From the IMG/VR virus record IMGVR_UViG_2541047916_000004: a DNA stretch of 31,226 nt. The stretch is one strand, 5' to 3'. The translations under genes were made by a program, and so were the position numbers. Origin of the DNA: a virus. Its lineage: Duplodnaviria > Heunggongvirae > Uroviricota > Caudoviricetes. The notes below the pieces were generated by a model. The model made no database searches. It had not been told where the DNA came from and worked only from the letters and a program-made list of their open reading frames with translations. Each line of letters opens with the position of its first letter. Position 1 is the first letter of the stretch. Positions 27,240-30,352 of the stretch are shown here, in pieces.

Positions 27240-27949
27240 GAGAGGCGGGCTGGACCAGCCTGTTTCAGGCGGTGGCTGAGCCCTTTTCCGGCGCCTGGCA
27301 GCAGGGCGTGAAAGCCGATCCTGAAGCCGTCCTCTCCTTTCATGCGGTGTTTGCATGTATTTCGCTGATATCCCAGGATATCGCCAAAATGCGGCTGCGT
27401 CTTATGCAGACGGATGCGCATGGGATACGCAGGGAAACGCGCCGGGGGGATATTGCCCGCCTCTGTCGTCGTCCCAACGCCCAGCAGAACCGCATCCAGT
27501 TTTTTGAACTGTGGCTGAACGCCAAACTGCGTCACGGCAATACGGTGGTGCTGAAAATCCGTAATGCCCGGGGGCAGATCAAAGAACTGCGTATTCTGGA
27601 CTGGAGCCGGGTTGAACCTCTGGTGGCGGATGACGGCGAGGTGTTCTACCGCATCACGCCGGACCGGAACTGCGGGATCACGGAGGCGGTGACGGTGCCT
27701 GCCCGGGAAGTGATCCACGACCGGTTTAACTGTTTTTTTCATCCGCTTATAGGATTGCCGCCGGTGTATGCCGCCGGGCTGGCGGCCACGCAGGGGCATC
27801 ATATTCAGGAAAATTCGACGTCTTTTTTCAGAAATGGTGGCAGGCCGTCCGGGGTGATTGAGATCCCCGGCAGTATTACGGAAGAAAATGCGAAAAAACT
27901 GAAGAGCAACTGGGACAGCGGGTATACAGGCGAAAATGCGGGGTATTAG
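27185..27949 (+). pseudogene. Portal protein, N-terminal fragment (interrupted by IS insertion)
   Basis: HK97-family portal-like sequence (...FFRNGGRPSGVIEIPGSITEENAKKLKSNWDSGYTGENAG) ending at a TAG supplied by the first bases of the IS; exact start uncertain. Confidence 0.75.
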
Positions 27950-28008
27950 ACGTCAACTAGTTTTGCCGACTCGCGCCAACTATACTGGCCGCACCCTTCA
28001 GTGCGACA

Positions 28009-28764
28009 TCAAGTCGCGCTTGTTACTGCCTTCGCTGTCTTTTTCCTGTAGCTTTCACCTTTCAGTTCGAACATATATCCGTGATGGATCAGCCGGTCTG
28101 CCGCCGCCACCGCCATAGTCTCATCCACGAAGATGCTGCCCCACATGCTGAACGGATGGTTACTGGTTATCACCAGGCTCCCACGTTCATAGCGATGCGC
28201 TATTAACTCGAACAGTACTCCCGTTTCGGCGCTGTCGCGTTTGACATAGCCAAGATCATCCACCACTATCACCCGGTAGCGATCCAGTTTCAGTAGCAGC
28301 TCATTCAGTTTCAACTGCGCTCTGGCTTTACGTAGTTCCTGCAACAACTCTCCTGCGCTGTAGAACCGGGCCCGGTAGCCCTGGCCTACTACGCCATCCA
28401 CGATCGCTGCCGCCAGATGGCTTTTCCCCAACCCGCTGGCTCCGAACAGCAGAACGTTTTCTCCTGCATCAACCCAGTCTGTCGTTTCACAGAGTTGCCG
28501 GAACTGAGCTCCATTCAGTTCCGGCACCTGACTGAAGTCGTATTCGCTTAGCGTTTTGGCAACTGGCAACCGGGCCTCCTTTTTATAACGACGCAGTTTT
28601 TCACTCTCGCGCCACAGGAGTTCTTCATTGCATAGCGTCAGAAGATAGCGCGATGGTGTCCAGCCTTCTGCCAGTGCTCGTTTTTCCAGAGCGTGCCATT
28701 CAGCTCCAACTCGTGTCAGGCGTAGTTTACGCAGGCTGCGTTCAAGGTGATGGATATTGCTCAC
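28009..28764 (-). CDS. istB: IS21-family helper ATPase IstB
   Basis: 251-aa ORF with Walker A GASGLGKSHLAAA and Walker B VIVVDDLGY, typical of IstB/DnaC-like AAA+ proteins. Confidence 0.9.
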   Translation of the reverse strand: MSNIHHLERSLRKLRLTRVGAEWHALEKRALAEGWTPSRYLLTLCNEELLWRESEKLRRYKKEARLPVAKTLSEYDFSQVPELNGAQFRQLCETTDWVDAGENVLLFGASGLGKSHLAAAIVDGVVGQGYRARFYSAGELLQELRKARAQLKLNELLLKLDRYRVIVVDDLGYVKRDSAETGVLFELIAHRYERGSLVITSNHPFSMWGSIFVDETMAVAAADRLIHHGYMFELKGESYRKKTAKAVTSAT

Positions 28765-30260
28765 TGCGAACCTCCCTTGCCACGCAGTAGTTGCTCATAA
28801 CTGCTCAGGTTATGCTGTTTCACATTGACTACCGGCAACGCCTTTTCCTTTATACCCAGGAAGCGCATCAGCCGGTGCAGATCCACGTTTCCCGGGGTAT
28901 TCAGCATCTGCTCCATACCTTTTGCCACGACTGAGATATCGTCGTATCCTGCAGCCAGTTTCAGAGCATGTACCATCAGCCTGCCTGCCATGTCGGGTTC
29001 CAGATGATTACATAAGCGACGCCACAGCCTCCGCCATTCATCGTCTGGCAGGATGTCATTTCTCAGCGTTGCATGGCAGAACGCACCGGGCTTTTTTGCC
29101 AGACTGTCGATCACATGTCGGAAGTCGATACGACGGGCCCGCGTCTTCCCTTTTTCTGGTCTGACACGTGGGCAGCTCATGACCTCGCTGCTGCCAACGT
29201 AACAGCTCAGACGATCGTCCCATAACCGGACCCGTAACAGTTGACCTACAAGCCGGGAAGGTACGCTGTAGACGACGTGCTTCACATTGATGGTACTGCT
29301 GCGGCTAACCCTCACAGTCAGCTCATCATAGTCAGCACTGCGACGAAGCGGCAGCGGTTTCAGATGAAGACGTTCTTCCTTGACCAGATCCTGATTGTTA
29401 CGGTTGTGCCGCATAACCTGCTGAGTGATGAAGGCCTGATATTCTTCTATGGTGCTGAAGTCGTTACTGCCCCGCAGTATCAGCGCCTGACAGATACGCC
29501 TTTTCAGATGTCCGTGGGCACTTTCAACCGAGCCATTTTCGTGGCCCCGACCGGCATTATTGTGTACGCCCTGCATTCCGTAGTGCTGACAGAGAGCAGC
29601 ATAACGCTCAGTCAGCTCGCGGCGTCCATCTTCGCCCTGTTGTTTCCATGCTGCCCTCAGGCTGTCCGTTTTATGTTCTACCGGCACTCCGCCCAGTTGT
29701 CCGAGGGCTTCCTGCAGACCTTCAGCCAGAGCAGAGAAGCTCTCACCACCCAGCACAACCCGCATCCAGCTCCAGTGGCTCCATTCCAGACGGAAGTGAT
29801 ACAACTTATGCGCCAACAACTTACCGGCGATGGTGACAACTACACCTTTCAGTTCAGTAAAGTCCGACAGACCTCGCAGACCGGGCTGATGTCGCTGGCG
29901 GAACATGACCTCCTGCTCTGCACCATACTGTAGCTTCCATTCGCGGACCCGCCGTTGCATTGTTCTTCGAAGGCTGTTGGGGTACTGGCCGGGATATTTA
30001 TCCTGTAGCATCTCCAGCAGAGTTGTTGGTGTCAGAGCCGGCCTCTCTTTCAACAGAGGAACAAGCATGCTGTCCCACACAGCTTCCAGAGGATCTTTGC
30101 GTGTGCGCCAGTGCCGAACACTGTTTTTTGCCCACTCTCCTTTTTCGATCCGACGACCAGAACGGACTGAGATACCAGCCTTCATGGCCGAGATATGCTG
30201 AGTTATACCTTTCTTACGCTGAGTCATATAGTAACTGACCTGAGAAGTATTGAGCGTCAC
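28761..30260 (-). CDS. istA: IS21-family transposase IstA
   Basis: 499-aa ORF with N-terminal HTH and a DDE integrase-like core; overlaps istB by 4 nt as in IS21-family elements. Confidence 0.9.
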   Translation of the reverse strand: MTLNTSQVSYYMTQRKKGITQHISAMKAGISVRSGRRIEKGEWAKNSVRHWRTRKDPLEAVWDSMLVPLLKERPALTPTTLLEMLQDKYPGQYPNSLRRTMQRRVREWKLQYGAEQEVMFRQRHQPGLRGLSDFTELKGVVVTIAGKLLAHKLYHFRLEWSHWSWMRVVLGGESFSALAEGLQEALGQLGGVPVEHKTDSLRAAWKQQGEDGRRELTERYAALCQHYGMQGVHNNAGRGHENGSVESAHGHLKRRICQALILRGSNDFSTIEEYQAFITQQVMRHNRNNQDLVKEERLHLKPLPLRRSADYDELTVRVSRSSTINVKHVVYSVPSRLVGQLLRVRLWDDRLSCYVGSSEVMSCPRVRPEKGKTRARRIDFRHVIDSLAKKPGAFCHATLRNDILPDDEWRRLWRRLCNHLEPDMAGRLMVHALKLAAGYDDISVVAKGMEQMLNTPGNVDLHRLMRFLGIKEKALPVVNVKQHNLSSYEQLLRGKGGSQ

Positions 30261-30352
30261 GCCATTTCCTGTTGGATCATGTAAATGACACTCAGGTTAC
30301 AAAACCGGCCAGAATAATCGGCGCCAGGCGGACTGAGTTATTGTCGTCTCAT

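Follow-up and report, generated by a model that had tools for sequence, protein, structure and literature searches.

We analysed a 31,226-nucleotide stretch of DNA from a Caudoviricetes virus (IMG/VR record IMGVR_UViG_2541047916_000004), hereafter the window, which is a lambdoid prophage whose integrase adjoins ompW in relatives. Near its end, the gene for an HK97-type portal protein is interrupted by a complete copy of ISEc10, an insertion sequence (IS) of the IS21 family. The interrupted locus comprises the following features.

27185..27943, plus strand: N-terminal fragment of the portal gene, codons 1-253 (Pfam Phage_portal, E=2.2e-44; TIGR01537 portal_HK97, 200.6 bits)
27938..27943, no strand: left target-site duplication GCGGGG, 6 bp, directly outside the element end
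27944..30353, minus strand: complete ISEc10 (IS21 family), 100% identity, 2410 bp; transcription opposes the phage late operon
27944..27991, no strand: istB-proximal terminal inverted repeat, 48 nucleotides (nt), 71% complementary to 30306-30353
28009..28764, minus strand: istB, AAA+ helper ATPase, 251 amino acids (aa) (Pfam IstB_IS21, E=9.5e-62; NF038214, 266.7 bits)
28761..30260, minus strand: istA, IS21-family transposase, 499 aa (NF033546 transpos_IS21, 227 bits; Pfam Mu-transpos_C_2)
30306..30353, no strand: istA-proximal terminal inverted repeat, 48 nt, the imperfect partner of 27944-27991
30354..30359, no strand: right target-site duplication GCGGGG, 6 bp; the repeat is not extendable on either side
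30360..31226, plus strand: C-terminal fragment of the portal gene, codons 254-542 (Phage_portal, E=2.2e-30; TIGR01537, 134.6 bits)

Identity and boundaries of the inserted element

The mobile element is bounded by the pair of inverted repeats and spans 2410 bp. A reading made from the sequence only had placed it at 27944..30352 (2409 bp); the start was correct, and the true end lies one base further, at 30353. The ends of the element, TATTAG...CTCATA, are the same in every ISEc10 copy examined. Copies of ISEc10 in complete Escherichia coli genomes, including seven in CFT073, are 100% identical to the window element over 2410 bp, and the Prokaryotic Genome Annotation Pipeline (PGAP) names the products of the matching copies 'IS21-like element ISEc10 family transposase' and 'helper ATPase IstB' (in the identical copies, WP_000174402.1 for istA and WP_000065240.1 for istB). 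Altogether, ISEc10 is carried by 899 of the 5426 complete E. coli genomes, in up to 22 places per genome.

Both istA and istB were located on the minus strand, as the sequence-only reading had it, with istB directly downstream and the TGA stop codon of istA overlapping the GTG start codon of istB in the tetranucleotide GTGA (28761-28764). The scores of the two proteins exceed the respective NCBIfam equivalog cut-offs (160 bits for NF033546 and 200 bits for NF038214), and the alignment of IstA covers profile positions 2-293 of the 294 in NF033546. The Pfam search with IstA reported only Mu-transpos_C_2 and no rve/DDE domain at E<0.001, and the family assignment of this protein therefore rests on the NCBIfam equivalog and on the identity to ISEc10. 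The earlier assignment of the element to the IS21 family is thus borne out by a perfect match to a named member and by the scores of both proteins, and the features of the family that are testable here, namely IstA, a downstream IstB, terminal inverted repeats and a target duplication of a few bp, are all present. ISEc10 is mobile in the laboratory, where new insertions by lpp were obtained in CFT073 under drug selection (PMC7482066); the window copy is sequence-identical to the CFT073 copies.

The interrupted portal gene

The N-terminal portal open reading frame (ORF) continues for one extra codon inside the IS and terminates at TAG (27947-27949), and the C-terminal reading frame is open from 30354 to the window end at 31226, where it runs off the sequence. 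Both fragments exceed the TIGR01537 cut-off (112 bits), and they tile the portal profiles consecutively, with the N-terminal and C-terminal fragments covering, respectively, positions 2-192 and 192-321 of the 321 in Phage_portal, and positions 2-208 and 207-343 of the 343 in TIGR01537. For comparison, we used the portal gene of NCTC86, which is annotated as intact and HK97-type (861 aa, WP_032167421.1). The N-terminal fragment is 100% identical to residues 1-253 of this protein, and the C-terminal fragment is 100% identical to residues 252-542, counting the duplicated Ala-Gly. Once the element and one copy of the repeat are removed, the window sequence has 0 differences from the NCTC86 gene over 1626 nt (542 aa), a match to an uninterrupted gene that is far beyond chance. 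The view that a single portal ORF was split and rejoins cleanly is therefore confirmed. The accompanying statement that the two fragments share a frame holds after this removal, but not in raw window coordinates, where the insert of 2416 bp (2416 mod 3 = 1) leaves the pieces out of frame.

The uninterrupted allele was recovered by sequence search: a 1000-bp segment spanning the repaired junction is contiguous in 1242 of the 5426 complete E. coli genomes, with 100% identity in at least 21. The IS/portal junction was found in one of these genomes, that of EC-1639 (NZ_LR025101.1), and a portal insertion with the GCGGGG duplication was found in none of the 5426. In the window, the junction k-mers of the portal gene and ISEc10 are GAAAATGCGGGGTATTAGACG and GAAAATGCGGGTATTAGACG. 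As a separate observation on this protein, the intact 861-aa portal (L011 19742-22327) continues at its C-terminus well past the portal domain, in a long extension where a unit of ~50 aa (PVPRDGRDYDP...IPQPADGKSLTPDDVRPMLEQMVKEAVSHI) is repeated three times in tandem, and the window ends inside the first of these repeats (31113-31226).

Target-site duplication and age of the insertion

Target-site duplications in the IS21 family are 4-8 bp long. In all eight of the eight ISEc10 copies that we compared from E. coli genomes, in differing chromosomal and plasmid contexts, the duplication at the flanks measures 6 bp (apparently 7 bp in one of them, a chance extension). Among 23 other distinct two-ended copies, taken from E. 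coli genomes and from IMG/VR and metagenome contigs, the duplication is 6 bp in 16 and, through chance extension, apparently 7 or 8 bp in 2, and the remaining 5 have none, presumably as a result of rearrangement. Because other copies typically carry a 6-bp duplication, the GCGGGG repeat seen at both ends of the window element is what a simple transposition of ISEc10 leaves behind, in line with its earlier interpretation as a target-site duplication. The insertion also appears to be recent, as had been suggested, because the flanks match the intact allele and the IS matches other copies, in both cases without differences; the duplication itself is perfect.

Consequences for the prophage

The window contains, in order, int, xis, an exonuclease gene, dicB/DicF, genes for repressor-like regulators and replication genes, followed by queH, hokD/sok, DUF968, rusA, Q, a DNA methyltransferase gene, three tRNAs and two STnc100 small RNAs (sRNAs). 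Next come the genes for a SASA (NanS-like) esterase, holin, lysozyme and Rz, and then the head module, with HNH, TerS, TerL, a protease-capsid fusion, a small ORF and the portal (22096-27943, plus strand); in relatives, the portal is followed by the head-tail connector and tail genes. All 39 of the other window genes that were compared with CE10 or NCTC86 are full length, ungapped and 90-100% identical to their counterparts there, and the portal gene is the only visible lesion in the window. The head module is known from real phages, because near-identical modules (96-99.7% identity) occur in isolated or Shiga toxin (Stx)-converting phages, such as YYZ-2008, 2851 and 1717. In contrast to lambda and HK97, in which the portal gene does not come after the capsid gene, the window portal gene follows the capsid gene, as in the Sakai Sp6/9/10/12-type prophages and in Stx1 and Stx2c phages.

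The portal is established as essential in the head assembly and DNA packaging of tailed phages. It is very probable, in our assessment, that an intact ISEc10 copy inserted into the HK97-type portal gene of a lambdoid prophage by ompW and knocked out the autonomous production of virions. ISEc10, encoding the DDE transposase IstA and the AAA+ helper IstB, underwent a simple insertion into the portal gene at codon 252/253, duplicating the 6 bp GCGGGG and coming to lie between codons 252/253 and 254, directed against the late operon. The portal product would then be reduced to a 254-aa N-terminal stub in which the conserved portal domain stops short of its C-terminal half, so that no dodecameric portal vertex would form, proheads would be unable to package DNA, and the prophage alone would yield no infectious virions, while presumably remaining able to undergo induction, excision, replication and host lysis. 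Given the essential role of the portal, the loss of autonomous virion production is plausible: with no functional portal vertex, no self-made infectious particles are to be expected. Conversely, because no truncation is seen in int, xis or the regulatory, replication, Q, lysis and terminase genes, induction, excision, replication and lysis are expected to proceed. The suggestion that the cargo of the prophage now functions as fixed host genes is not upheld by this gene content; the portal knockout should keep the prophage from spreading in virions of its own, but should block neither its loss nor its induction.

Weighing against this interpretation are that the loss of virions is deduced from the role of the portal, that another prophage of the source strain might provide a complementing portal, and that the tail region lies beyond the 31-kb window. 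The last point bears on the possibility that the prophage had already been made non-functional by lesions in tail or tail-fibre genes outside the window, in which case the IS would not be the cause of the defect. In EC-1639, the tail-fibre gene (37603-39981) is indeed annotated as two partial pieces, with a ~1 kb unannotated gap between them. However, the full length of all 39 other window genes compared and their high identity to intact relatives, together with IS flanks that show no decay, make such prior decay unlikely.

A compatible portal could also be supplied in trans by a co-resident lambdoid prophage, or the gene could be repaired by recombination with it, the insertion itself being real. 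Head- or packaging-defective prophages of O157 Sakai nevertheless undergo packaging and, in some cases, transfer, which has been credited to complementation by other prophages (PMC2669165), and there are E. coli genomes with up to 7 places that match the portal segment. The median, however, is one copy of this segment per genome, and EC-1639, the sole complete genome with the disruption, contains only the two portal halves and no intact second copy, so that rescue of this kind seems improbable.

A second ISEc10 insertion in the same gene

In EC-1639 (NZ_LR025101.1, 20293-22699), an ISEc10 copy that is identical to the window element at 2410 of 2410 positions interrupts the same portal gene in the same orientation, and PGAP/RefSeq already annotates the locus as ISEc10 lying between two partial pseudogenes of the portal. 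The duplication in EC-1639 reads TGCGGG on both sides, 1 bp upstream of the GCGGGG in the window, and both configurations restore GAAAATGCGGGGAAAAC. Over the ~10 kb of late region that the two prophages share, they otherwise differ by two substitutions and by no insertions or deletions. Both are located at ompW, and their early regions differ, including a different Q gene in EC-1639. These observations point to two independent insertions at adjacent positions as the simplest reading.

Inheritance of a single insertion by descent was considered and rejected, given that the EC-1639 junctions read TGCGGG and that the other differences are substitutions only. Such shared ancestry would call for one ancestral insertion in the window and EC-1639, with the 1-bp offset produced by paired assembly errors in EC-1639 and no hot spot involved. 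On the left, a run of four G is shortened by one, as is typical of long-read errors; genes elsewhere in the EC-1639 record are flagged as frameshifted, and both prophages sit at ompW. The right difference, however, is a T inserted outside a homopolymer, and the two changes jointly yield a perfect TGCGGG duplication that also restores the intact sequence, whereas the remaining differences across 10 kb of the late region are not of the insertion or deletion type and the two prophages diverge in their early regions. On this evidence, a single ancestral insertion has only a small probability. Misplacement of a repeated IS into the portal gene by the assembler, which could be envisaged for a multi-copy element found in up to 22 places per genome, has a negligible probability, as an artefact would not create a perfect flanking duplication of 6 bp, precisely the length that ISEc10 generates.

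Were insertion uniformly random, the chance of any one of the ~1100 catalogued ISEc10 places landing within 1 bp of the window insertion and in the same orientation in a 5-Mb genome would be of the order of 10^-4 by our estimate. When 46 other distinct left junctions of ISEc10 are compared, the 6-mer that is duplicated proves GC-rich (62%), and A/T is over-represented at a distance of 3-4 nt from it on either side (36 of 46 at position -9 and 11 of 13 at position +3); the portal site, AAAAT-GCGGGG-AAAAC, fits this weak target pattern in both registers. IstB curves and bends the target DNA, which leads to a structure-based choice of target (PMC11208146), and the ISEc10 pattern agrees qualitatively with such a choice. 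We consider the chances about even that AAAAT-GCGGGG-AAAAC is a true ISEc10 hot spot, hit independently at least twice, 1 bp apart and in one orientation. A structure-based choice of target by IstB, directed at a GC-rich core with A-tracts 3-4 nt outside the duplication, would then knock out the portal recurrently. What speaks against a hot spot is that the argument draws on two events and on a weak consensus of 46 junctions, perhaps not all independent. Selection for prophage inactivation appears to be an unlikely cause of the recurrence, because the excision and lysis genes stay intact and the host should therefore gain no protection from induction.

There was no third portal hit among the 16 IMG/VR and 39 metagenome copies of ISEc10, and in the metagenome scan no left end of ISEc10 turned up at 30 nt or less from the portal anchor, so that the hot spot is no more than suggestive. 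The scan of one-genome-per-species contigs for IS ends returned one irrelevant short contig, which carries no target-site information. A second near-coincident pair of insertions (L056/L065) was not counted, since its flank differs by a CAG unit and there is no clean duplication.

Cargo of the prophage

The cargo genes and RNAs of the window are the following.

4546-4597, minus strand: DicF antisense RNA, adjoining dicB (small-RNA call)
10359-11021, plus strand: QueH, epoxyqueuosine reductase (100% identical to the CE10 copy)
11092-11267 and 11262-11414, plus strand: hokD with sok antitoxin RNA (gene comparison and small-RNA call)
15628-15877, plus strand: three tRNAs (ARAGORN: Met (CAT), Arg-TCG and Arg-TCT)
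15952-16142 and 16420-16629, plus strand: STnc100 sRNA, two copies (136 and 160 bits)
16852-18702, plus strand: SASA-family (NanS-like) esterase (90% identical to the NCTC86 copy)

The cargo listed in the sequence-only reading (queH, hok, a methylase gene, tRNAs and small RNAs) is present, with the methylase identified as a DNA methyltransferase, hokD accompanied by sok, and DicF located by dicB. The queH gene is absent from the NCTC86 version of the prophage and from the annotated stretch of the EC-1639 version. For the first tRNA, ARAGORN predicts Met (CAT), whereas the PGAP homologue is a tRNA-Ile with a lysidine-type CAT anticodon. Both STnc100 copies sit between the tRNA cluster and the esterase gene. 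The esterase is 90% identical to its NCTC86 counterpart, whereas the neighbouring genes are 100% identical, which by sequence comparison marks the esterase gene as a local mosaic or divergent patch.

Significance and comparison with known systems

For annotation purposes, the locus should be recorded as portal::ISEc10 (pseudogene), and the prophage should be flagged as not autonomously virion-competent. This flag affects the predicted phage-borne spread of queH, hokD/sok, the methyltransferase, the tRNAs, the NanS-like esterase, DicF and STnc100. If confirmed, the recurrence of ISEc10 in the portal gene would offer a natural case of target preference in the IS21 family, one that could be set against the DNA-bending model of IstB, and a true hot spot would make the IS a repeatable route to virion-defective yet inducible prophages within a widespread E. 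coli prophage family.

Elements of the IS21 family usually have TG...CA ends, with multiple internal IstA-binding repeats, features that are typical of the family rather than defining; the window element, in contrast, has TA...TA ends. Like the window element, the IS21 prototype has overlapping genes for a transposase and an AAA+ helper, has imperfect inverted repeats at its ends and duplicates a short stretch of its target. The closer comparison is with ISEc10 in CFT073, which has the same 2410-bp sequence, the same istA and istB proteins, the same ends and the same duplication length, and differs only in the insertion site. The portal::ISEc10 allele of EC-1639 shares the gene, the ompW location, the IS and its orientation with the window, and differs in the insertion point, 1 bp upstream, and in the early region. 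Among O157 prophages, nu1 is interrupted by an IS in Sakai Sp4, and IS629 lies in the head module of the Stx2 phage 1717; these cases likewise involve an IS in a packaging or head gene and the same type of head module, but differ from the window in the IS family (IS3) and in the target genes. There are well-documented cases of IS elements inserted into the morphogenesis genes of prophages, and a near-identical allele is already in RefSeq. Taken together, these comparisons show that the interruption of the portal gene in the window is correctly identified but ordinary and of a known kind, the apparent recurrence of ISEc10 in this gene being the only mildly new point.

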